Notes: a model not told the origin generated them from the sequence alone. Positions 3,199-49,520 are shown, counted from the first letter of the stretch. The stretch is DNA of 56,713 nt from Acidobacteriota bacterium (GCA_038747035.1 JBCDKB010000003.1:1-56713), one strand, 5' to 3'. A program made the numbers and translations.

Positions 3199-4632
3199 AT
3201 GTCTATTTCCGAGCGATATAACGTTTCCCATCGGTCGCGGCTCCCAAACGCGAAGGTCGAAAACGACCCGTCGAGCCTCTCGAGGTCCCGCAAGCTCCGA
3301 AGCGGCGCCTCACCCGAGGTCGCCCTCCCACTCGGTCCGTTCGCGGGCTTGGCGGGGTACCGATCAGCTGGGCGGAGAGCGATTGGCCGGAGCGCGCAGG
3401 GTCTGATCGGCGTCGCGATTCGGGGCCTCGACATTCTGGTCAGCAGCGGGCTACTGGTCGTGGCGGCGCCCTTCATGGTCGTCGCCGCGGTGACGGCGTC
3501 GCGACGGGTTGGCCGGGTGTTCGACGCGACGGCGGTGCTGGGACGGAATCGGTACGACTTCGAGCTCTTGCGCTTCGCCGGGGATTCGAAGATCCGCAGC
3601 TGGCCGGTGCTGCTCAACGTGCTGCGGGGTGAGATGTCACTCTGCGGACCGCGGCCGGTGACCCTGCCGGAGGTGCGACTCCTGCCGATCCGAGCCTGGG
3701 ATCGATTCCTCTCGCGCCCCGGCGTCGTGTCGATCTTCTGGATGCGTCGACGGATGGGCATCGCCTACGACTCCGAGCTCGAGGTCGACCGGCTCCAGGT
3801 CTTCGACAGCGGCTTCGGGCAAACCGTCGGACTGCTGCTGCGTTCGCTGCCGGTCGCGGCGGGCCGACGGCCGGCGTCAACTTTCGCGCCGACGGTGGAC
3901 ATCTTAGGGATCGAGATCCGCAACTCGACAATGGCGGAGACGCTGGATTGGATGCTCGCGCGGATCCGGCGACGAGAGCCGACCCGGGTGGCCTTCGTCA
4001 ATCCCGACTGCCTCAATATCGCCTGCCGGGATCCGCGTTATCGCAGCGCCCTCGACAGTGCGGATCTGGTGCTGCCGGACGGTTTTGGCCTGCGCTTGGC
4101 CGCCCGCCTGCTCGGTACGGAGCTGTGCGACAACATCAATGGCACCGACCTCTTTCCGCGCCTGTGCGCGGCCCTCGAAGAGTCGGGCGGACGCCTCTAC
4201 CTGCTCGGCGCCAGGCCCGGCGTGGCGGCACGGGCGGCGGTGGGGATGCAGGCCAGGTTTCCGTCGCTATCGGTCGCCGGACACCACCACGGCTATTTCT
4301 CGGCCGACGAGCAGGCCGACGTCATCGGCGGCATCAAGGACTCGAAGCCGGATGCTCTGCTGGTGGCGTTCGGCGCGCCGCGCCAGGATGTTTGGGTCGA
4401 AGAGCACCAGGCCAGCCTTGAAACCCCTCTGATCATCGGCGTCGGTGGTCTCTTCGACTTCTATTCCGGCCGCATCCCGCGGGCGCCGATGTGGATGCGA
4501 GAGCTCGGCCTGGAATGGTGCTGGCGGATGCTGCAGGAGCCGGGCAGATTGTGGCGGCGCTATGTCGTCGGCAATCCGCTTTTTCTCTTGAGGGTCTTGC
4601 GCCAGCGGTTGACGGGTGATCACCGTCGCTAG
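3199..4632 (+). CDS. WecB/TagA/CpsF-family glycosyltransferase with an N-terminal degenerate sugar-transferase domain (start uncertain; ORF open from 3097)
   Basis: C-terminal FVNPD, LPDG, NGTDL, YLLGA, HHGYF, GAPRQ, GVGGLFDF, RAPMWMRELGLEW and RRY; N-terminal LLNVLRGEMSLCGPRP. Confidence 0.9.
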   Translation: MSISERYNVSHRSRLPNAKVENDPSSLSRSRKLRSGASPEVALPLGPFAGLAGYRSAGRRAIGRSAQGLIGVAIRGLDILVSSGLLVVAAPFMVVAAVTASRRVGRVFDATAVLGRNRYDFELLRFAGDSKIRSWPVLLNVLRGEMSLCGPRPVTLPEVRLLPIRAWDRFLSRPGVVSIFWMRRRMGIAYDSELEVDRLQVFDSGFGQTVGLLLRSLPVAAGRRPASTFAPTVDILGIEIRNSTMAETLDWMLARIRRREPTRVAFVNPDCLNIACRDPRYRSALDSADLVLPDGFGLRLAARLLGTELCDNINGTDLFPRLCAALEESGGRLYLLGARPGVAARAAVGMQARFPSLSVAGHHHGYFSADEQADVIGGIKDSKPDALLVAFGAPRQDVWVEEHQASLETPLIIGVGGLFDFYSGRIPRAPMWMRELGLEWCWRMLQEPGRLWRRYVVGNPLFLLRVLRQRLTGDHRR

Positions 4633-4841
4633 GCTCGGCGAGACGAGCGGGCGGGGACGGTTGTCAAAGCTCCGTGAATCGTACCGGCTGAGGGGGGCCT
4701 TCGTCGCCGCTGAAGTGGCAAAGGATGCCCGCGGCGCCGGAACCGTCGCGGCGCCCTACGGTCTGACGAGCGCTCGCGGTAAACTGAGGGCGTTGCGCCT
4801 TCTTTCCAGGTCCCATCGGCCTTTGCGACCGGAGCCCATTC

Positions 4842-39427: not shown

Positions 39428-42400
39428 ATGTCTGCCCACGACGCTTCGCCGTACCAGCCCAGTCACCCGATCCGCATCGTGACGTCCACCGCCCTTTTCG
39501 ACGGGCATGACGCCTCCATCAACCTCATGCGTCGCTTGATGCAGGCGACCGGCGTCGAGGTCGTGCACCTCGGCCACAACCGCAGCGTCGACGACATCGT
39601 GCGCGCGGCGCTGCAAGAGGATGCCCAAGGCGTCGCGGTGACCTCGTACCAGGGCGGGCATATGGAGTTCTTCCAGTACCTGCGCGAGCGCCTCGACGAG
39701 GTCGGCCTGAACCACGTGCGCATCTTCGGCGGCGGCGGCGGCACCATCGTGCCGCGGGAGATCGACGAGCTGCACGCCGCGAAGATCGACAAGATCTTCT
39801 CGCCGGAGGACGGCCGCAATCTCGGCCTCCAGGGCATGATCAACCAGGTTGTTGAAGGCTGCGACTTTCCGGTTCAGTCCCTCGAAGTCTCGGTCAACGG
39901 CGGCTGGCAGCATACGGCCCGGGCGATCACCCGGGCCGAACTCGGCTCGACGTCGGAAGCGCCGGAGGCCTCGGCCGACGGCGAGTCCCGTCGGGCGCCG
40001 GTGCTCGGCATCACCGGCACCGGCGGCGCCGGCAAATCGTCGCTCACCGACGAGCTGGTGCGTCGATTCCTGGTCGACTTTAGAGACAAGACGATCGGCG
40101 TGGTCTGCGCCGATCCGACCCGACGCAAGACCGGCGGCGCCCTGCTCGGCGACCGGATTCGCTTCAACTCACTGCGCAATTCCCGCGTCTTCATGCGCTC
40201 CGTCGCCACCCGCGGCGCCTCCGGGGAGGTCTCCGAATCGATCGACGAGATCCTCGACGTGATGCGTGACGACTTCGATTTCGTGATCCTCGAAACCGCC
40301 GGCATCGGACAGGCCGACGCCCGCGTCACCGAGCTCTGCGACCTGGCGCTCTACGTGATGACCAGCGAATACGGCGCACCGTCGCAGCTCGAAAAAATCG
40401 AGATGCTCGACTACGCCGACCTGGTGGCGATCAACAAATACACCCGCCGGGGGAGCGAAGACGCCCTGCGTGACGTCCGGCGCCAGTACCAGCGCAACCA
40501 CCTGCTGTGGGATACGCCGGTCGAGAAGCTGCCGATCTTCGGGACCAGCGCCGCCCACTTCAACGACACCGGCGTCAATGCGCTCTACGCCCACCTGGTC
40601 GCCACGGTGAATGCCAAGCTGAATCTGGACTGGACGTCGAGATTCACCGCCGACGACAGCCGGACCACCGACAGCGCCCGGGCGATCATCCCCTCGGGCC
40701 GGGAGCGCTACCTGTCCGAAGTGGCCGAAGCGTGCCGTGAGTACCGTCGGTGGCTGGAAGAGCAGGTGGACGCGGCGGCCGAGGTCGAAGGTGTGCGCAT
40801 CGCCCTCGCCGTGCTCGGCGCCGAGGTCGGCGAAGGCTGGGGGCCGTTGGGAGAGCTCGGCGGCGAGGGCCGGCGCGGCCAGGCGATCGCCGAGCTGGCG
40901 GCGGAGCACGACCGCCTGCTTGAGCGCGTGACCCCGGAGAATCGTCGCCTGCTCGCCGGCTGGCGGGAGTGGGACGCGGCCTACCGCGCCGAGCGCTACG
41001 TCTACCAGGTGCGCGGTCGCGACATCGAAGTGGCGAACTTCCGCGAGACCCTCTCCGGCACCCAGGTGCCGAAGGTCGCGCGGCCCAGCTTCCGGTCCGC
41101 GGCGGAGAAGCTGCGCTGGCGTCTACTCGAGAATGCCCCGGGGAGCTTTCCGTTCACATCGGGGGTCTTCCCGTTCAAGCGCGAGGCGGAAGACCCGACC
41201 CGCATGTTCGCCGGCGAAGGGACATCAGAGCGGACCAACGAACGCTTCCACTACCTGGCGGCGGATCAGCCGGCCAAGCGTCTGTCGACGGCCTTCGATG
41301 CCCTCACCCTCTACGGCGAAGATCCGGGAATCCGGCCCGATATTTACGGCAAGATCGGTGAAAGCGGCGTCGCCATCTTCACGGTGGAGGAGGCCGAGCA
41401 GCTTTACGCCGGCTTCGACCTCTGCGCCCGCACGACGTCGGTCTCGATGACCATCAACGGCCCCGCGCCGACGCTGCTCGCCTTCTTCATGAACGCGGCG
41501 ATCCGTCAGCAGTGTCGCCGTTTCCTGCGCACCGAAGGCCGCCTCGACATCACCGAAGAGCAAGAGCTGCAGCCCGACGCCCGTCGGGGGTCGTCGTGGG
41601 ACGCCGTGCGCGGGCTGCTGACCGACGGGGAATACGCCGAGGTCGCGTCCCAGACGCTGAAGCAGGTCCGCGGCACGGTGCAGGCGGACATTCTGAAAGA
41701 AGACCAGGGTCAGAACACCTGCATTTTCTCCACCGAGTTCGCCCTGCGCGCCATGGGTGACGTGCAGCAGTACTTCATCGACCACGGGGTGCGTAACTTC
41801 TACAGCGTCTCGATCTCGGGGTACCACATTGCGGAGGCGGGGGCGAACCCCATCCACCAGCTCGCCTTCACGCTCGCCAACGGCTTTACCTACCTCGAGT
41901 ACTACTTGGCGCGCGGCATGGACATCAACGCCTTTGCGCCGAATCTCAGCTTCTTTTTCTCCAACGGCATGGACGCCGAATACACGGTGATCGGCCGCGT
42001 CGCCCGGCGGATCTGGTCGGTGGCGCTGCGCGACAAGTACGGCGCCGACGAGCGGGCCCAAAAGCTGAAGTACCACATCCAGACGAGCGGCCGCAGTCTG
42101 CACGCCATGGAGATCCAGTTCAACGATATCCGCACGACCCTGCAGGCGCTGCTGGCCACCTATGACAACGCCCAGTCGCTGCACACCAATGCCTACGATG
42201 AAGCGATCACCACGCCGACCGAAGAATCGGTGCGACGGGCGATGGCCATCCAGCTGATCATCGGCAAGGAATTCGGCATGGTGATGTGCGAGAACGCGAC
42301 GCAGGGTAGCTTCCTGGTCGAGGAGCTCACGGATCTGGTTGAGGAAGCCGTGCTGCAGGAGCTCGATCGGATCTCCGAGCGCGGCGGCGTTCTGGGCGCG

Positions 42401-42775
42401 ATGGAATTGCAGTACCAGCGCGGTGAGATCCAAGGCGACTCCATGAAGTACGAGCACCTGAAGCACTCGGGCGAGCTACCGATCGTCGGCGTGAACACTT
42501 TCCTGCCCAAATCGGCAGAGGCCGCGTCGATTCCCCGCGGATTGGACATTACCCGGGCGACGCCGGAAGAAAAGCACGAGTGCATCCGTCGTTTGGAGGA
42601 CTTCCACCGTCGCCACGAAGGGCACGCCGCAGAAGCGCTCAACGCCCTACAGCAGGCCGCGCTCGACGGCTCGAATCTCTTCGAGAAGCTGCTCGAAGCC
42701 ACCCGGGTGTGCTCGCTCGGACAGATCACCGGCGCCCTCTACGAAGTCGGCGGCGAGTACCGTCGTAACCTCTGA
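39428..42775 (+). CDS. icmF: Fused isobutyryl-CoA mutase / MeaB-like GTPase
   Basis: B12-binding DGHD and SYQGGH; GTGGAGKSS, LLGDRIR, ETAGIGQ; mutase domain RMFAGEG, RGTVQADILKEDQ, HIQTSGRSL, SLHTNAYDEA; 1115 aa. Confidence 0.96.
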   Translation: MSAHDASPYQPSHPIRIVTSTALFDGHDASINLMRRLMQATGVEVVHLGHNRSVDDIVRAALQEDAQGVAVTSYQGGHMEFFQYLRERLDEVGLNHVRIFGGGGGTIVPREIDELHAAKIDKIFSPEDGRNLGLQGMINQVVEGCDFPVQSLEVSVNGGWQHTARAITRAELGSTSEAPEASADGESRRAPVLGITGTGGAGKSSLTDELVRRFLVDFRDKTIGVVCADPTRRKTGGALLGDRIRFNSLRNSRVFMRSVATRGASGEVSESIDEILDVMRDDFDFVILETAGIGQADARVTELCDLALYVMTSEYGAPSQLEKIEMLDYADLVAINKYTRRGSEDALRDVRRQYQRNHLLWDTPVEKLPIFGTSAAHFNDTGVNALYAHLVATVNAKLNLDWTSRFTADDSRTTDSARAIIPSGRERYLSEVAEACREYRRWLEEQVDAAAEVEGVRIALAVLGAEVGEGWGPLGELGGEGRRGQAIAELAAEHDRLLERVTPENRRLLAGWREWDAAYRAERYVYQVRGRDIEVANFRETLSGTQVPKVARPSFRSAAEKLRWRLLENAPGSFPFTSGVFPFKREAEDPTRMFAGEGTSERTNERFHYLAADQPAKRLSTAFDALTLYGEDPGIRPDIYGKIGESGVAIFTVEEAEQLYAGFDLCARTTSVSMTINGPAPTLLAFFMNAAIRQQCRRFLRTEGRLDITEEQELQPDARRGSSWDAVRGLLTDGEYAEVASQTLKQVRGTVQADILKEDQGQNTCIFSTEFALRAMGDVQQYFIDHGVRNFYSVSISGYHIAEAGANPIHQLAFTLANGFTYLEYYLARGMDINAFAPNLSFFFSNGMDAEYTVIGRVARRIWSVALRDKYGADERAQKLKYHIQTSGRSLHAMEIQFNDIRTTLQALLATYDNAQSLHTNAYDEAITTPTEESVRRAMAIQLIIGKEFGMVMCENATQGSFLVEELTDLVEEAVLQELDRISERGGVLGAMELQYQRGEIQGDSMKYEHLKHSGELPIVGVNTFLPKSAEAASIPRGLDITRATPEEKHECIRRLEDFHRRHEGHAAEALNALQQAALDGSNLFEKLLEATRVCSLGQITGALYEVGGEYRRNL

Positions 42776-42939: not shown

Positions 42940-44226
42940 ATGGCCAAGACGATCTTGCTCGCCGACGACAGTATGACCATCCAGAAGGTCGTCGAGTTGA
43001 CTTTCATGGATCAGGACTACCAAGTCGTGGCGGTCAGCGACGGCGAGACGGCAATCTCCCGCCTCGCTGAAGTCAATCCTGACCTGGTCATCGCCGACGT
43101 CCACATGCCAGGGGCCAGCGGCTACGATGTGTGTCGGCACACGAAGGCGGAGCGCCCCGGAATTCCGGTGCTCTTGCTGGTCGGCACCTTCGAGCAATTC
43201 GATGAAGACGCCGCCCGCGGCGTCGGCGCCGACGGCGATTTGAAGAAGCCTTTCGATTCCCAAGAGCTCCTCGGCCAGGTCGAAACGCTGCTCGCCGCCG
43301 CGGCCCCGGCGCCGAAGGCGGTCGATGACCCTTCTTTTGCGACCCAGGATCTGCCGGTCGCGTCTTCTCCGGCGGTCGATCTATCGGCGACGGCGCCGGG
43401 TGCCGAGTTCGCAGAGCCTACCCCGAGCTTCGCGTCACCCGAGGCCGCTCCGAGCTTTGCGCCGTCCGAGGCCGCCCCGAGCTTCGCGTCTCCTGAGGCC
43501 GCTCCGAGCTTTGCGCCGGCCGAGTCTGCCCCGAGCTTCGCGTCACCCGAGCCTGCCTCGAGCTTCGCGCCGGCCGAGCCTGCCCCGAGCTTCGCGTCGG
43601 CCGAGCCTGCCCCGAGCTTCGCGTCGGCCGAGTCTGCCCCGAGCTTCGCGTCGGCCGAGGCTGCCCCGAGCTTCGCGTCGGCCGAGCCTGCTCCGGCCGC
43701 CGATTTCGCGACCCCAGCGCCGAGTTTTGAAATGGCGCCCGACTCCGCGCCGGCGCCGTCGGGTGATTTCGCCACTCCGCAAGCGGCCCCGGAAACGGTC
43801 TACGCTCCGGAGCTCGCGACGGCCCAGGAAGTGGATCCGCCGACCGCTTCGCCGGGCACCGTTTCGACCCAGCTCATCGCGACCCAGACCCCGGACGAAG
43901 AGCCGCTCGCCGCAGAGACAGCACCCGCTGAAGCGACGCCCGCCCCGGAGCCGGATCCGATCGCGGCGGCGCCCGCGGGCGATGCACCGTCCATCGACGC
44001 CAACGCGGTGACCCGGCCGATGGCGGCGCGACAGCCGGGCGGTGAGGAAGAAACATCGCTCGGCAGCCTTTCCGACGCCGATGTCGATCGCATTGCCCGC
44101 CGGGTCGTCGAATTGCTCGCCGACGCCAAGGTCCAGGACGTGGCGTGGGAAGTGGTCCCGGATCTGGCGGAAGTGCTGATCAAAGAGCGTATCCAGGAGC
44201 TCGAGAGCCAAGTCGAGTCGGCTTAA
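42940..44226 (+). CDS. RomR-like response regulator (receiver domain, Pro/Ala-rich linker, conserved acidic C-terminal helix)
   Basis: GGAG RBS; LLADDS, ADVHMPG, LLVGTFEQFD, KPFDSQEL; C-terminal VAWEVVPDLAEVLIKERIQELE. Confidence 0.85.
   Translation: MAKTILLADDSMTIQKVVELTFMDQDYQVVAVSDGETAISRLAEVNPDLVIADVHMPGASGYDVCRHTKAERPGIPVLLLVGTFEQFDEDAARGVGADGDLKKPFDSQELLGQVETLLAAAAPAPKAVDDPSFATQDLPVASSPAVDLSATAPGAEFAEPTPSFASPEAAPSFAPSEAAPSFASPEAAPSFAPAESAPSFASPEPASSFAPAEPAPSFASAEPAPSFASAESAPSFASAEAAPSFASAEPAPAADFATPAPSFEMAPDSAPAPSGDFATPQAAPETVYAPELATAQEVDPPTASPGTVSTQLIATQTPDEEPLAAETAPAEATPAPEPDPIAAAPAGDAPSIDANAVTRPMAARQPGGEEETSLGSLSDADVDRIARRVVELLADAKVQDVAWEVVPDLAEVLIKERIQELESQVESA
43423..43692 (+). 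repeat. 10 x 27-nt coding tandem repeat (PSFASAEPA-type nonapeptide)
   Basis: Consensus CCGAGCTTCGCGTCGGCCGAGCCTGCC; 10 consecutive units counted in both DNA and protein. Confidence 0.95.
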
Positions 44227-44261
44227 GCCGGCGCGCGGGAGACCTGTCTTCGGTGCCCACC

Positions 44262-45059
44262 ATGGCATTCGATACATTCTGGACGGAGCTCAAGGGCCTG
44301 CGGGCTGCCCGCGGGCGCCGCGTGGAAAACTTGATTGCGTGGCGTCGGACGCCGAGTAGCCATCAAACCGCGCGGCGTTTGATTGAGGAATACGGCTCGG
44401 AAGAGTCGATGCCACCGCGCATCGACATCGTGGCCTTCGAGCAGACCGCAGGCCGGGGCCGCGAAGACCGCCCGTGGTCGTCGCCCGCGGAAGCGGGGCT
44501 CTATGCGAGCTTGGTGCGGCCCGTGTCCTCTGCAGCGGTGCCATATCTGCCGCTACTCGTGCCGGTGGCGCTCACCGAAACCCTGGCGGCCGAGACCGGG
44601 GGGCGCTGCCGCATCAAGTGGCCCAATGACCTCGTCGTGGAAGGCAAGAAGCTGGCCGGTATTTTGATCGACGCCAAGGCCCAGGGGGACCAGCACGCGG
44701 CGGTGATCAGCTTCGGTATCAACGTGACGGCCGATGTTGATCGCTTCGGCCAGGCCAACGCGACGTCGCTCGGGGTCTTCGCAGAGCCGCGTTCGCTGGC
44801 GACCCTTTTCGAAGACACCATCGACGCCGTTGACGCTGCACTCTCCGCGGCGCCCGAACCGTCTCTCTTCGACCGCTACCGGTCTCTTTCCCAGCATCGG
44901 GACGGTGACCGCCTGCGCTGGCGGCAGGGCGAGGAGAACGTCGAGGGTTTTTTCCGGGGCTTCGAGCCCGACGGGCGCCTGCGCCTCGAGGTCAACGGCG
45001 AGGTGACGCGCGTGGCCGCCGGAACGCTGCTCGAGGCGGGCGACCGTGCCGGCGGCTAA
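44262..45059 (+). CDS. birA: Biotin-protein ligase (no N-terminal HTH)
   Basis: QTAGRGR, W.SP, IKWPND, KKLAGIL, FGINV. Confidence 0.9.
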   Translation: MAFDTFWTELKGLRAARGRRVENLIAWRRTPSSHQTARRLIEEYGSEESMPPRIDIVAFEQTAGRGREDRPWSSPAEAGLYASLVRPVSSAAVPYLPLLVPVALTETLAAETGGRCRIKWPNDLVVEGKKLAGILIDAKAQGDQHAAVISFGINVTADVDRFGQANATSLGVFAEPRSLATLFEDTIDAVDAALSAAPEPSLFDRYRSLSQHRDGDRLRWRQGEENVEGFFRGFEPDGRLRLEVNGEVTRVAAGTLLEAGDRAGG

Positions 45060-45849
45060 AGCCGCGGCGGGGCAGGTCGTCCTTTTCGACGTCGGCAATA
45101 CCCATACCGTCGTCGGCCTGATGCGGGACGGTGAGCTGGTCCACCACCTCCGGCTCGCGACGGATGGGCAGCGGACGCCCGATGAGTATGCGGCGCTGTT
45201 GCTGCCCCTCTTTCAGCGCCTCGGCGTTGATAGCGGCGAGACCCGCGGCTGTGCCATCTCTTCGGTGGTGCCGCCGCTGAAGTCGACGTTGTCCCGGCTG
45301 GCGCGCGATCTCTTCAATGTTGATCCGCTTTTTGTCGAACCTGGCATCAAGACCGGCATGCCCATCCGTTCCGACAACCCTTCCGCGGTTGGGGCGGACC
45401 GTATTGTCAATGCCCTGGCGGCGCTCCACCGGTACGGCGCGCCGGTGGCGGTGGTGGACCTCGGGACGGCGACCACATTCGACGTGGTCAACGCCGCGGG
45501 GCAATACGTCGGAGGCATCATCGCGCCGGGCATCGGGATCTCGGCGGAGGCGCTCTTCGCCCAGGCTTCCAAACTTTCGCGGGTCGATCTGCGCCGGCCG
45601 GAAGAGCTCATCGGGCGCAGCACCAGCGCCGCCATCCGGTCGGGTATCTACTACGGATCGGTGGCCATGGTCGACGGCATCCTCGAGCGGCTCTGTGACC
45701 ACGTCCCCGGCCTGGAGATGGTGGTCTGCACCGGCGGACAAGCCCAGCTGATCGCCGAGGCCTCCGCCTATATCCGTGAAGTGGACGAAATGTTGACGCT
45801 CTATGGCCTGAAGCTCATCTACGAGCGGAATCAGCCCCGTGAGCGCTGA
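45046..45849 (+). CDS. coaX: Type III pantothenate kinase
   Basis: DVGNT, SSVVP, GADR, VDLGTATTFD, GGIIAPG, TGG. Confidence 0.95.
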   Translation: MPAAKAAAGQVVLFDVGNTHTVVGLMRDGELVHHLRLATDGQRTPDEYAALLLPLFQRLGVDSGETRGCAISSVVPPLKSTLSRLARDLFNVDPLFVEPGIKTGMPIRSDNPSAVGADRIVNALAALHRYGAPVAVVDLGTATTFDVVNAAGQYVGGIIAPGIGISAEALFAQASKLSRVDLRRPEELIGRSTSAAIRSGIYYGSVAMVDGILERLCDHVPGLEMVVCTGGQAQLIAEASAYIREVDEMLTLYGLKLIYERNQPRER

Positions 45850-46561
45850 CGCCACCACCGCCGGGGGATTCTTCGAACGATCGCCCGAACGGGCCTATTT
45901 CCAGGCGCTCGAAGCGGTGATGATCAAACACCGGGGTGCGCCATTCCAGCTGTCCCCGGATGACTGGCACCTTTCCAAGCACTGGCTGGCCGAGGGGATT
46001 CCCTTGGATCTGGTGGACGAAGCGATCGGTGCGGTCGTCGAAAGGCGGCGGGAGAAGGATCGGGAGATCCCCCGCCGCCTGACCTTCTATCGTCAGGCCG
46101 TCGAGGCGGCGTGGAAGCGCGTCGGGGCGCTCTCCGCCCCGGGAATCCGCCGCGAGGCGCCGGCCTTCGACCTCGAAGGCCGCCTGCGTAACCTCGCCTC
46201 GGCGGTCGAGAAGGCGGGCGCGGGCCGTCCCGCCATCGTCGCCCTAGCCCGGCGCATCACGGACGCCGCCCGGGACGCCGCCGGCGACCTCGAATCGGTG
46301 GAAGCGGTCCTAGGGACTTTGGATGGAGAGCTGCTCGCCGCCGCGCAGTCGGACCTCGAGCCCCAGGTCGCCGGTGAAATCGACCGGGCCGTTGCGCGAT
46401 CGATGCAGACGCACGCCGATCGTTCGCCGGAGCCCCCGTCTGCGGATTTGGCGCGACGGATCCGGGCGACGGTGGTCCGCGAAACTTTATCGCTGCCTGT
46501 ACTTTCGCTCTTTTCTCCGGAAGCGGCCGATGAGGGCGGCGAACCCTCAGACGCTCCTTGA
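45839..46561 (+). CDS. Conserved hypothetical helical protein
   Basis: Overlaps the coaX stop; typical codon usage; RGAPFQLSPDDW...W...GIPL and LPVLSLF motifs. Confidence 0.72.
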   Translation: MSADATTAGGFFERSPERAYFQALEAVMIKHRGAPFQLSPDDWHLSKHWLAEGIPLDLVDEAIGAVVERRREKDREIPRRLTFYRQAVEAAWKRVGALSAPGIRREAPAFDLEGRLRNLASAVEKAGAGRPAIVALARRITDAARDAAGDLESVEAVLGTLDGELLAAAQSDLEPQVAGEIDRAVARSMQTHADRSPEPPSADLARRIRATVVRETLSLPVLSLFSPEAADEGGEPSDAP

Positions 46562-46755
46562 CCCCAACCCGGGGCTCTTCTTACAATTGGGTACTGTTTG
46601 ACAGTCACGCACCGGCAGCTCTTAAGCCCTCGCCCCGTTAGCGCGCCCGTATTTCCGGCCTCGGCGCTGCGCGGCACACGCTGTCGGACTGACGGCAAAC
46701 GCACACCCCGCGAACACGATTTGGTGACCAGGGACACTTACAAAGTCGCCCAGCC

Positions 46756-47442
46756 ATGATTACCGGGCACAATACCGACGTGCGCTACGGCGACGTGGTC
46801 CTTCACGTCCAGACTGAGGACAAAGGACACAATAACCCTTGCATCGAGAGCCTGATCTACTACGGCGGTCAGGTTGTCGTCGCGAAGCGCGGGAGCTACG
46901 CCGAGCTGCTCGAGAGCGGCAAGGGCGACGACGAGATCATGGCGCTGATGGATCATCAGCACCGCACCATGATCAAGGCGATCCAGGCCGGCAAATTCGA
47001 CGACAAGATCAAGGCCTTCTTGCCGGACAAGTCGAAGCTACCGAGTCGCGAGCCGCGGGAAGTCACCAGCACCTTCGACATGTCCTCCGACAGCGGGCGG
47101 ACCCTGGACCAGGTCATCCTCGAGTACTTGACGAGCGAGGCGGAACAGGAGCAACTGGTCCTGGTGATGGAGGATGAACCCGTCATCGAAGGCGGCGTCG
47201 CCATCGATTTGGCGTTGCGCACCCGGTCGTCGAAGACCGGTCAGGCGATCGGCGGCGCCTCGGTCGGAATCAAGATGATCTCGACCTTCGGCGGGCCGAG
47301 GACCCTCGGGATCGGTGAGACCGACGGCGATGGGTTCGTCAGAATTCCGGTGGAAATCCCGCGCGTCGACCGCGGTACGGCCGCTTTGATCATCACCGCC
47401 GCCAGCACCATCGGGCAGGCGGAGCTCAAGCACCTCCTTTGA
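46756..47442 (+). CDS. RomY-like protein with an additional C-terminal beta-sandwich domain
   Basis: N-terminal TGHNTDV..GDVVLHVQTEDKG..NP.I...I...G.V...KR.SY...LM..QH..M...I..G; internal TLDQVILEYL motif. The resemblance is recalled, not computed. Confidence 0.68.
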   Translation: MITGHNTDVRYGDVVLHVQTEDKGHNNPCIESLIYYGGQVVVAKRGSYAELLESGKGDDEIMALMDHQHRTMIKAIQAGKFDDKIKAFLPDKSKLPSREPREVTSTFDMSSDSGRTLDQVILEYLTSEAEQEQLVLVMEDEPVIEGGVAIDLALRTRSSKTGQAIGGASVGIKMISTFGGPRTLGIGETDGDGFVRIPVEIPRVDRGTAALIITAASTIGQAELKHLL

Positions 47443-47719: not shown

Positions 47720-47795
47720 GGGCCGCTAGCTCAATTGGCAGAGCAACAGACTCTTAATCTGTGGGTTCTAGGTTCGATTCCTAGGCGGCTCACCA
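47720..47795 (+). tRNA. tRNA-Lys(CTT)
   Basis: 76-nt cloverleaf: GGGCCGC/GCGGCTC acceptor stem, anticodon arm ACAGA-CT CTT AA-TCTGT, GGTTCGATTCC T-arm, encoded CCA. Confidence 0.97.
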
Positions 47796-48045: not shown

Positions 48046-48130
48046 GCGAAAGTGGCGGAATCGGTAGACGCGCTAGACTTAGGATCTAGTCCCTTCGGGG
48101 GTGGGGGTTCGAGTCCCCCCTTTCGCACCA
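48046..48130 (+). tRNA. tRNA-Leu(TAG)
   Basis: 85 nt: GCGAAAG/CTTTCGC acceptor stem, CTAGA-CT TAG GA-TCTAG anticodon arm, long variable arm, GGTTCGAGTCC, CCA; typical position upstream of tig. Confidence 0.97.
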
Positions 48131-48182: not shown

Positions 48183-49520
48183 ATGAGTGTGGTCACAGGC
48201 ATGGAAGAAGCGGGCCCGCACCGCGTGAAGCTGACCATTGAGGTTCCCGCCCAGGCGGTCGATGCTGAAATGGGTCGCGTCATGCAGGAGTTCCGCCGTG
48301 AAGTGCGTTTGCCTGGCTTCCGTAAAGGCAAAGTGCCGAAGCGGTTGCTGCAGAAGCGGTTCAACGATGAGATCCAGCGCGAAGTCGCCGACCGGCTCTT
48401 GCCGCGCTACTGGCAGCAAGCCCAAGCTGAGAAGGATCTCGATCCTCTCCTGCCGCCGACGGTCGATGACCTGACCCTCAATGAGGGCGAGCCGATGGTG
48501 GTGGTCGCCACCGTCGAGACCCGCCCGGACATTACTCTCGGTGACATCGAGAATTTCGACCTGCCGGACGAGTCCACGGATCCGAACGACGACGAGATCG
48601 ATGACGCGATCGCCGACCTGCGGCGTTCCTTCGCCGAATGGAACACGGTGGAACGCGAGGCGGGTACCGGCGATCTGGTGGTCGGCACCATGCTCGACCT
48701 TGATGCCGGCGGAGATGATGCCGGTGAGGCTGACGGTGACGAAGAGGTCGCCGAAGCGGCCCCGGCTCCGGAGCCGCGGCCGATGCATATCGAGATTGGC
48801 GCCGCCAATACCGACGAAGAGTTGTCCCTGCTCCTGACCGGCAAGGCCGCCGGCGCCACCGTCATCTACGAGCGCACGCACGGCGAAGGTGAAGAGGAAA
48901 GCCAGCACCGCTACGAGATCCAAGTCAACGAGATCAAAGAGCAGGAGCTGCCGGAAGTCGATGACGCGTTCGCTGAACGCCTAGGCATCGGCTCTTCGGA
49001 CGAATTACGCACCCTCTTCGAACAGCGAATCCGTGGTGAAAAAGAGCAGTCCCTGCGCCGGCGCCGGACCGAGATTCTCCTCGAGGCCTTGCGTGAGCGC
49101 CACCCGCTCCCCACTTTGCCGGAAGGCGTGGTGCAACAGGAAGCGGAACGCATGATGCGCGAGCAAGCCGACCAGATGGCGCAGCAGGGTGTCGACCTCG
49201 AGAATGCCGGCATCGACTGGGGCCAGATGCTCGACAGCATCCGCCCGGCCGCTGAACGCCGGGTGCATGAACGCCTGGTCCTCGACGCCATCGCCAAGGA
49301 CCAAGGATCGCGCCTCGACGAAGAGAAATTCGAGATGTTCCTGTCGTCGGCGGCGGCGCAGCAGAACGTATCTTCCCTGGCCCTGCGCCAGCGCCTGTCC
49401 GAAGACGGGCGTCTCGAGCCGCTGCGGGCCCAGCTCCTGCGCGAGCAGACCATCGCCGAGCTTCTCGGTGAAGGCGACTCCGTATCCGACGACGAAGACG
49501 ACTCGGACGACGACGTCTAA
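48183..49520 (+). CDS. tig: Trigger factor
   Basis: LPGFRKGKVP signature; LPEVDDAFA; upstream of clpP. Confidence 0.95.
   Translation: MSVVTGMEEAGPHRVKLTIEVPAQAVDAEMGRVMQEFRREVRLPGFRKGKVPKRLLQKRFNDEIQREVADRLLPRYWQQAQAEKDLDPLLPPTVDDLTLNEGEPMVVVATVETRPDITLGDIENFDLPDESTDPNDDEIDDAIADLRRSFAEWNTVEREAGTGDLVVGTMLDLDAGGDDAGEADGDEEVAEAAPAPEPRPMHIEIGAANTDEELSLLLTGKAAGATVIYERTHGEGEEESQHRYEIQVNEIKEQELPEVDDAFAERLGIGSSDELRTLFEQRIRGEKEQSLRRRRTEILLEALRERHPLPTLPEGVVQQEAERMMREQADQMAQQGVDLENAGIDWGQMLDSIRPAAERRVHERLVLDAIAKDQGSRLDEEKFEMFLSSAAAQQNVSSLALRQRLSEDGRLEPLRAQLLREQTIAELLGEGDSVSDDEDDSDDDV

Follow-up and report, generated by a model that had tools for sequence, protein, structure and literature searches.

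RomR- and RomY-type genes of a probable MglA/MglB polarity module in an acidobacterial genome, apparently joined by a rearrangement within one genus

To our knowledge, the switch formed by MglA, MglB, RomR and RomY is the best-studied polarity system in bacteria to be built around a eukaryote-like small GTPase, and the mechanistic work on it has all come from Myxococcus xanthus. Here we analyze a stretch of 56,713 nucleotides, contig C3 in the 8.79-Mb genome assembly (G000) of an Acidobacteriota bacterium (GCA_038747035.1, JBCDKB010000003.1:1-56713), which carries a RomR-like gene (product P0001) and a RomY-like gene (product P0002) on one strand; the whole stretch is referred to as the window. 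Very probably, P0001 is an orthologue of RomR and P0002 a RomY-type protein, both acting in an MglA/MglB polarity module that is standard in the class, and the adjacency of their genes represents neither an operon nor a conserved module, having been created by a rearrangement within the genus.

In M. xanthus, RomR consists of a receiver domain (REC, residues 1-116), a non-conserved linker and a helical, Glu-rich C-terminal region (RomR-C, residues 369-420) that contains an invariant Trp and an invariant Pro and is kinked near residue 396 (PMC3441718; 2024 bioRxiv RomX paper). Its phospho-acceptor has been described as Asp53 (PMC3441718), W394 and E402 as residues that contact MglC (PMC12719032), and for RomX a solved structure is available (8ZNA; 2024 bioRxiv RomX paper). 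RomY, a protein of 188 residues in M. xanthus, has a conserved N-terminal domain at residues 8-89 (Szadkowski et al. 2022, PMC9481161). The presence of RomR in Acidobacteria is not new: it was published in 2012, along with the finding that RomR occurs together with MglA/MglB and type IV pili (PMC3441718). The main text of the RomY paper (PMC9481161) does not contain the word 'Acidobacteria', and its S1 Table may list the proteins described here; a literature search returned no paper combining 'Thermoanaerobaculia' and 'MglA'. An earlier note on this DNA had cast the two genes as the guanine-nucleotide-exchange-factor (GEF) side and the GTPase-activating-protein (GAP) side of the switch. This framing is outdated and no longer settled, given a 2026 report that presents RomR/RomX as an effector of MglA-GTP, not a GEF, and has RomR sequestering MglB (PMC13408092).

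P0001 (428 aa) has the same three-part layout as M. xanthus RomR (420 aa, Keilberg et al. 2012) at a nearly equal length, and the two have in common a receiver with its acceptor at Asp53, a non-conserved, disordered linker and a kinked helical tail with an invariant Trp and Pro. Homologues begin at the same residue as the P0001 reading frame with its ATG at 42940, and the acidic pocket (D9/D10), the acceptor D53 and K103 are invariant in two alignments of such proteins (A1 and A5). In the AlphaFold2 (AF2) model, residues 1-121 adopt a confident receiver fold (pLDDT, the predicted local distance difference test, 85-97 for REC), while residues 122-378 are without secondary structure, with pLDDT values mostly below 50, and the linker columns fail to align between homologues. 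The tail carries a WEVVP motif, with W403, E404, P407, A410 and E411 invariant in A5, and the spacing between W403 and E411 (+8) equals that between W394 and E402 of M. xanthus RomR. What distinguishes the P0001 linker from that of M. xanthus RomR is its composition of a recent tandem repeat, the 27-bp unit of which encodes nine residues (Pro/Ser/Phe/Ala/Glu) within the disordered region (pLDDT <50). In a genome of the same genus (G174), the RomR match covers only about 263 codons (L198:5009-5797). Given this shorter match and the 10.4-copy repeat of P0001, the length of the RomR linker appears to change fast, apparently through repeat expansion.

The assignment of P0001 draws on 80 RomR loci that were fetched with a Kofleriaceae RomR-like protein as lead and that come from Myxococcota (including the named Sorangium cellulosum chromosome and an Anaeromyxobacter metagenome-assembled genome, MAG), Desulfuromonadales, Methylomirabilota and Acidobacteriota, taxa that overlap the RomR groups listed in 2012 (PMC3441718). 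The core W[ED][VIL][VIL]P is present in 73 of these loci, and P0001 has the tail motif in common with the named Sorangium cellulosum, Anaeromyxobacter, Desulfuromonas and Methylomirabilota loci. Anaeromyxobacter RomR has a receiver domain with 50% identity to the one in P0001 (E 3e-36). When the Kofleriaceae RomR was searched in G000, P0001 scored best at 93 bits, ahead of the next receiver at 67 bits, the next-best receivers being about 30% identical; conversely, the P0001 tail found the RomR-like gene as its sole match in the Kofleriaceae genome, a reciprocal best match. On its own, the tail retrieved 1120 database proteins at E<=1e-3, and among the 120 matches listed almost all are receiver proteins and none is named RomR. 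A sequence search of the Protein Data Bank (PDB) with P0001 returned generic receiver domains only, and no RomR-specific curated model in NCBIfam matched it.

P0002 shares with M. xanthus RomY the N-terminal domain, a disordered spacer and an 'LD.VIL.YL' motif. The curated NCBIfam model of the domain (NF053858, RomY_Nterm; 83 profile positions, cut-off 50 bits; the corresponding matches are called RomY_N below) is matched over all its positions with 96.2 bits on the protein and 98.6 bits on the DNA, and it matched none of 14 control genomes. Residues 17-22 form the HVQTED motif. The N-domain also aligns with the 191-aa Anaeromyxobacter RomY (BLASTP E 3e-16), and a search of G000 with the Kofleriaceae RomY yielded P0002 as the only match; the membership of both proteins in the families that the earlier note had proposed is borne out, for P0001 by the reciprocal best match with the Kofleriaceae genome and for P0002 by the RomY_Nterm score. 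A PDB sequence search with P0002 gave no match at E<=1. The AF2 model (mean pLDDT 83) shows an N-domain of four strands plus helices (pLDDT 79-89), disorder at residues 96-113, a helix at 117-130 and a confident beta-sandwich at about 133-228 (pLDDT >88).

It is in this C-terminal part that P0002 departs from its myxobacterial counterparts. Compared by eye, the LDQVILEYL stretch in the helix agrees in 7 of 9 positions with the LDEVILSYL found in Anaeromyxobacter and Sorangium (BLASTP aligned no such short stretch), and L117, D118, Q119, I121, L122, Y124 and L125 are invariant in an alignment of RomY-type proteins (A2). Four myxobacterial RomYs, from Anaeromyxobacter (191 aa), Sorangium (357 aa), Kofleriaceae (456 aa) and a Polyangiaceae-labelled MAG (250 aa), end in SLDEVILSYL, SLDEVILAYL or LDEEILALL with no domain beyond, whereas in P0002 the motif is internal and followed by a beta-sandwich of 95 residues. 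The best Foldseek match of this domain is MG4 of complement C5 (6rpt_A, E 1.5e-4), and a weak, sub-threshold match to Pfam bMG3 (E 0.012) agrees with the macroglobulin/Ig-like structural matches. In a sample of 151 genomes of the class, which includes three unpublished genomes (G008, G108 and G139; counts without them are given out of 148), the domain occurs once per genome in 125 (122 of 148), always 0.2-0.45 kb downstream of RomY_N on the same strand. Because of this extra domain, P0002 does not conform to a layout of N-domain, spacer and motif only; to regard that layout as defining for RomY is our own judgement. The class-conserved beta-sandwich constitutes a modest novelty. We tentatively suggest, with doubts that prevail over our confidence, that RomY in this class, and perhaps in the phylum, may be a two-domain protein in which the terminal motif has turned into an internal helix and a cytoplasmic beta-sandwich could give the co-GAP its own anchoring or partner surface. 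The predicted architecture might then confine GAP activity to one pole by means other than the low-affinity MglB binding of M. xanthus, possibly offsetting a missing MglC.

Further RomY_N-like sequences were observed. A second RomY_Nterm match in G000 (C97:16175-16429; L003:1495-1755, minus strand) scores 51 bits, just above the cut-off, and is a stand-alone open reading frame (ORF) of 86 aa that lacks the motif helix and the beta-sandwich; comparable frames, some of about 90 aa and some of about 300 aa, add one to three extra copies per genome in the family. In addition, MAGs labelled Deltaproteobacteria (L030/L109) and Polyangiaceae (L031/L111) encode an MglA 84-85% identical to that of G000, along with a RomY of the acidobacterial two-domain form that ends the same way at its C-terminus; either these genes were transferred or the taxonomic labels of the MAGs are in doubt.

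No MglA-like or MglB-like sequence lies in the window according to a tblastn search of the whole genome, as the earlier note had observed, and the pair is encoded elsewhere. On contig C473, a gap of 10 nt separates a Roadblock gene (mglB) from the gene of a 194-aa GTPase (mglA) that comes after it. Both products match their M. xanthus counterparts (PDB 6hjh, 6h5b, 6izw) over nearly the full length, MglA with E 2.8e-93 (6hjh) and MglB, including its C-terminal tail, with E 1.4e-50 (6h5b), and of 80 related loci, 79 have mglB immediately before mglA. By tblastn, MglB-like sequence is confined to C473, while MglA-like sequence was also found on C170 and C18. The genome encodes six PilT-family ATPases above the TIGR01420 cut-off and a PilM scoring 264 bits. 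An MglA-type polarity module is plausible because of the mglB-mglA pair together with these type IV pilus genes. The possible switch raised in the earlier note has thereby gained ground: the orthology searches returned a reciprocal best match for RomR and a sole match for RomY, mglA and mglB are both present, and a polarity switch of the MglA type very probably operates in this lineage. The genome-wide search for partners that the note had called for succeeded for mglA, mglB and the pilus genes and failed for MglC within the queries used, PF03259 and an MglB profile.

The additional GTPases differ from the C473 protein. The paralogue on C170 (8717-9301, minus strand), which sets G000 apart from the M. 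xanthus system, is 58% identical to MglA, and its frame runs to about 525 aa, with a C-terminal extension that is long and Pro-rich; the C18 sequence (3470-4648, minus strand) comprises two small GTPases in tandem, with about 30% identity to MglA. Most genomes of the class have 3-5 MglA-like matches at E<=1e-40. As for RomX, the models NF053857 and NF053859, guessed to represent RomX or RomR from their numbering next to NF053858, turned out to describe unrelated families, and clustering of small ORFs around the 80 RomR loci produced only antisense artefacts of conserved genes, no RomX profile search having been made.

What does the proximity of romR and romY signify? The two genes do lie on the same strand about 2.5 kb apart, and only birA (TIGR00121), coaX (NF009855) and one hypothetical gene without a family match stand between them, just as had been described. 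The accompanying suggestion that the components are linked as a module did not withstand comparison with relatives. Among 24 genomes of the family (8 of the same genus and 16 from nine other genera), RomY_N was found in 24 and RomR-C in 23, and the genes share a contig at a distance of 2.5-2.7 kb in 4 of the 8 genus members (G000, G170, G173 and G175) and in none of the other 16. No other genome of the class sample has a close pair; in 13 further genomes with both genes on one contig, they are separated by 116 kb to more than 3 Mb (tables read by eye). RomY is absent from the flanks (<=4 kb) of all 80 RomR loci. The synteny comparison reveals no romR-romY arrangement conserved across independent lineages. 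Viewed from romY, 3 of 14 related loci, the closest ones (RomY 85-87% identical), have icmF-romR-birA-coaX-hypothetical upstream; the other 11 lack this block, and the six of them that were inspected have other genes there, in most cases an epimerase-like gene and in some also an asparaginase-like gene (read from translations). Downstream, tig follows romY in 11 of the 14. In G174, the icmF-romR-birA-coaX-hypothetical block is intact, and no romY-tig side appears in the next 7.8 kb.

According to these comparative data, the adjacency is derived and of shallow depth, and the arrangement is not a conserved one. The same data, together with the 195-nt gap and its promoter-like site, contradict a single romR-birA-coaX-hypothetical-romY operon. 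On the simplest reading, a rearrangement within one genus joined two unrelated transcription units in the spacer at 46562-46755: romR would belong to one block (icmF-like gene, romR, birA, coaX and the hypothetical gene), and romY would head a second unit (romY, two tRNAs and tig).

The module itself is common. In the class sample, MglA (counted at E<=1e-40) is present in 130 of 151 genomes, RomR-C in 128 and RomY_N in 128 (127 above the cut-off); without the unpublished genomes the figures are 127, 125 and 125 of 148. Across a sample of 101 genomes from the phylum, 70 carry RomY_N (67 above the cut-off; 54 of 79 genera), or 69 of 100 when G008 is left out. In one genus, g6, MglA, RomR-C, RomY_N and the RomY beta-sandwich are each found in 0 of 21 genomes. 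These genomes (e.g., G029, G033 and G041) belong to the same order, are mostly closed and are 97-99% complete; the pattern in g6 has the appearance of the module having been lost cleanly and as a whole. As in M. xanthus, RomR is found together with MglA and MglB, and RomY with MglA, MglB and RomR.

With the roles of RomR and RomY taken over from the M. xanthus proteins, we propose the following model. RomR would serve as a polar scaffold and response regulator, its Asp53 receiver accepting a phosphoryl signal and docking RomX, and its disordered linker and helical tail may hold it at the poles and contact Roadblock proteins. Together with RomX, it would engage MglA-GTP. The N-domain of RomY is expected to bind the MglB dimer with MglA-GTP and to raise GTP hydrolysis as a co-GAP, an activity that would keep MglA-GTP at one pole. 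The GTPase pair acted upon would be the one encoded on C473, and the likely output is surface movement driven by type IV pili.

Could the resemblance be superficial, P0001 being a common response regulator that has one domain and a low-complexity tail, and P0002 some unrelated small protein? Public records label such proteins 'response regulator', 'CheY-like' or 'hypothetical protein', and the lack of a match to a RomR-specific curated model is what this reading would expect. It is nevertheless hardly credible, given that P0002 passes the curated RomY model at nearly twice the cut-off, that the RomR tail is conserved with myxobacteria, that the receiver is 50% identical to that of Anaeromyxobacter RomR, against about 30% for the next-best receivers in G000, and that RomR and RomY show strict co-occurrence with MglA, including a shared loss. 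It is conceivable, if rather unlikely, that the proteins are true RomR and RomY in a module that steers something other than reversing motility, such as fixed-pole pilus placement, adhesion or the choice of the division site, much as MglA/RomR govern prey invasion in Bdellovibrio. In the 2012 survey, the Frz reversal system was present in only 10 of 26 RomR genomes and functions outside M. xanthus were given as unknown (Keilberg 2012, PMC3441718), and in Bdellovibrio MglA is reported to be re-used for predation (PMC3983030). The failure to find MglC with PF03259 and the MglB profile, the extra domain of RomY and the extra MglA paralogues would fit such a function as well. On the other hand, type IV pilus genes are numerous in G000, and all 26 genomes with intact MglA, MglB and RomR in that survey also had them (PMC3441718).

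A different objection concerns the adjacency, which may have been selected if having the genes for two arms of the MglA switch on the same strand, 2.5 kb apart, allows this sub-lineage to co-regulate them as a supra-operon. The probability of two named genes falling within 3 kb of each other in 8.8 Mb is about 7e-4 by our own arithmetic, and the pair persists in half of the genus, three of the loci having a birA only 41-46% identical. We consider selection improbable, since the pair is absent from the other four genus members, from all 16 other family genomes and from the rest of the class sample, three unrelated housekeeping or hypothetical genes intervene, a promoter-like site and a gap of 195 nt lie ahead of romY, and romY keeps tig as its own downstream partner in most loci.

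Several points weigh against our preferred interpretation, that of a standard polarity module whose two genes were joined by rearrangement. Each mechanistic step in the model above is carried over from M. xanthus and would hold here by analogy, and the comparison was made via other myxobacteria instead of the M. xanthus RomR and RomY sequences themselves: the myxobacterial link rests on the Kofleriaceae, Anaeromyxobacter and Sorangium cellulosum loci, the curated model and published descriptions. E390 and K391 of M. xanthus RomR are unmatched in P0001, where the positions W-4 and W-3 are Q and D. M. xanthus RomR has MglC as a partner, whereas no MglC-like second Roadblock protein was detected in G000 with PF03259 or by an hmmsearch of six-frame ORFs with the MglB profile, a negative limited to these queries because MglC is very divergent. 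Since none was found, the RomR tail may not have, in this organism, the role in binding MglC that has been published for it. The predicted complex of two MglB, one MglA and RomY residues 1-92 is weakly supported: it scored 0.36 (best of three controls, 0.00), a range where few solved complexes fall. The mark set for this score is reached by 58 of 80 solved complexes and by 2 of 110 mismatched pairs, and scores <=0.60 include only 7 of the 80 solved complexes along with both of the mismatches that passed. Between runs, at least 59% of contacts are the same, and partner pLDDT is at least 77. The assembly is fragmentary (761 contigs, 89% complete). The romY promoter is a consensus match only. Finally, retention of the adjacency in half of the genus while birA diverged leaves some local benefit possible.

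Table 1. Features of the romR-romY region, in window coordinates
Feature	Position	Strand	Description and evidence
Fused B12-binding / MeaB GTPase / methylmalonyl-CoA-mutase gene (IcmF-like)	39428..42775	+	Pfam MM_CoA_mutase 385, MeaB 119, B12-binding 56 bits
Probable romR orthologue (P0001)	42940..44226	+	428 aa: receiver domain, disordered linker, RomR-C helical tail
Receiver (REC) domain, residues 5-114, acceptor Asp53	42952..43281	+	Pfam PF00072 Response_reg, E 2.9e-20
27-bp tandem repeat, 10.4 copies	43414..43695	+	Tandem Repeats Finder, 85% matches, score 375
RomR-C, two helices (379-393, 396-427)	44074..44220	+	AF2; W403, P407, E411
birA, biotin-protein ligase (housekeeping)	44262..45059	+	TIGR00121, 108 bits vs cut-off 83.1
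coaX, type III pantothenate kinase (housekeeping)	45046..45849	+	NF009855, 296 bits vs 233; overlaps birA by 14 nt
Hypothetical 240-aa protein (P0003), last gene of romR block	45839..46561	+	No Pfam/NCBIfam match
Sigma-70-like promoter match (TTGACC, 18 nt, TACAAT)	46558..46587	+	10/12 consensus positions; ~170 nt upstream of romY
Intergenic gap, 195 nt	46562..46755	n/a	Between hypothetical gene and romY
Probable romY-type gene (P0002)	46756..47442	+	228 aa: RomY N-domain, disordered linker, motif helix, beta-sandwich
RomY N-terminal domain, residues 1-83	46756..47004	+	NF053858; AF2
Conserved helix, residues 117-130, with LDQVILEYL (117-125)	47104..47145	+	AF2; alignment A2
C-terminal beta-sandwich (macroglobulin/Ig-like), residues 133-228	47152..47439	+	AF2, Foldseek
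tRNA-Lys (CTT)	47720..47795	+	ARAGORN
tRNA-Leu (TAG)	48046..48130	+	ARAGORN
tig, trigger factor	48183..49520	+	Pfam Trigger_N 115 bits, Trigger_C 87 bits

The surroundings of the two genes are compiled in Table 1. Between 39.4 and 49.5 kb, every real gene is on the plus strand. The IcmF-like gene is the first of the genus-conserved block and also precedes romR in G174 and in three further loci (L084-L086). The nearest ESM Atlas clusters of P0003 are unnamed Acidobacteriota proteins, and the family was found only in this phylum; its gene lies 3' of coaX in G174 too and travels with birA-coaX in the genus. A DnaD-like fold for the N-terminal ~90 residues of P0003 was considered and dropped, the template-modeling (TM) score of about 0.3 being too weak for use. 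Two promoter-like sites were found in the region, compared with 0.4 expected from shuffled sequences. Judged by MglA and RomY, the closest relatives of G000 are metagenome-assembled Thermoanaerobaculia or Acidobacteriota.

A separate observation concerns the gene that follows romR elsewhere. In 44 of the 80 RomR loci (numbered L113-L192), the next gene downstream of romR, in the same orientation, is valS, which encodes valyl-tRNA synthetase; these loci come from Kofleriaceae, Anaeromyxobacter, Desulfuromonas/Trichloromonas, Methylomirabilota, Pyrinomonadaceae and Thermoanaerobaculia. Near romR, birA occurs in 11 and coaX in 8 of the 80 loci, often after valS, and in the genus studied here valS is missing from the position after romR (window 44226-44262). 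A literature search returned no paper that pairs RomR with valyl-tRNA synthetase.

Taken as a whole, the finding is largely ordinary, because genes of this kind are common across the phylum and the two came to lie close together here by a recent local rearrangement; the romR-romY distance carries no general message. The interpretation in the earlier note is thus partly supported, its polarity switch being very probable and its linked module not. For the biology of the system, the near-universal presence of mglA, mglB, romR and romY in one acidobacterial class, and their frequency in the phylum, provide a broad comparative set, and the joint loss in one genus offers a natural loss-of-function lineage. 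Those who study this module may find small leads in the RomY with two domains seen throughout the class and in the widespread romR-valS pair.

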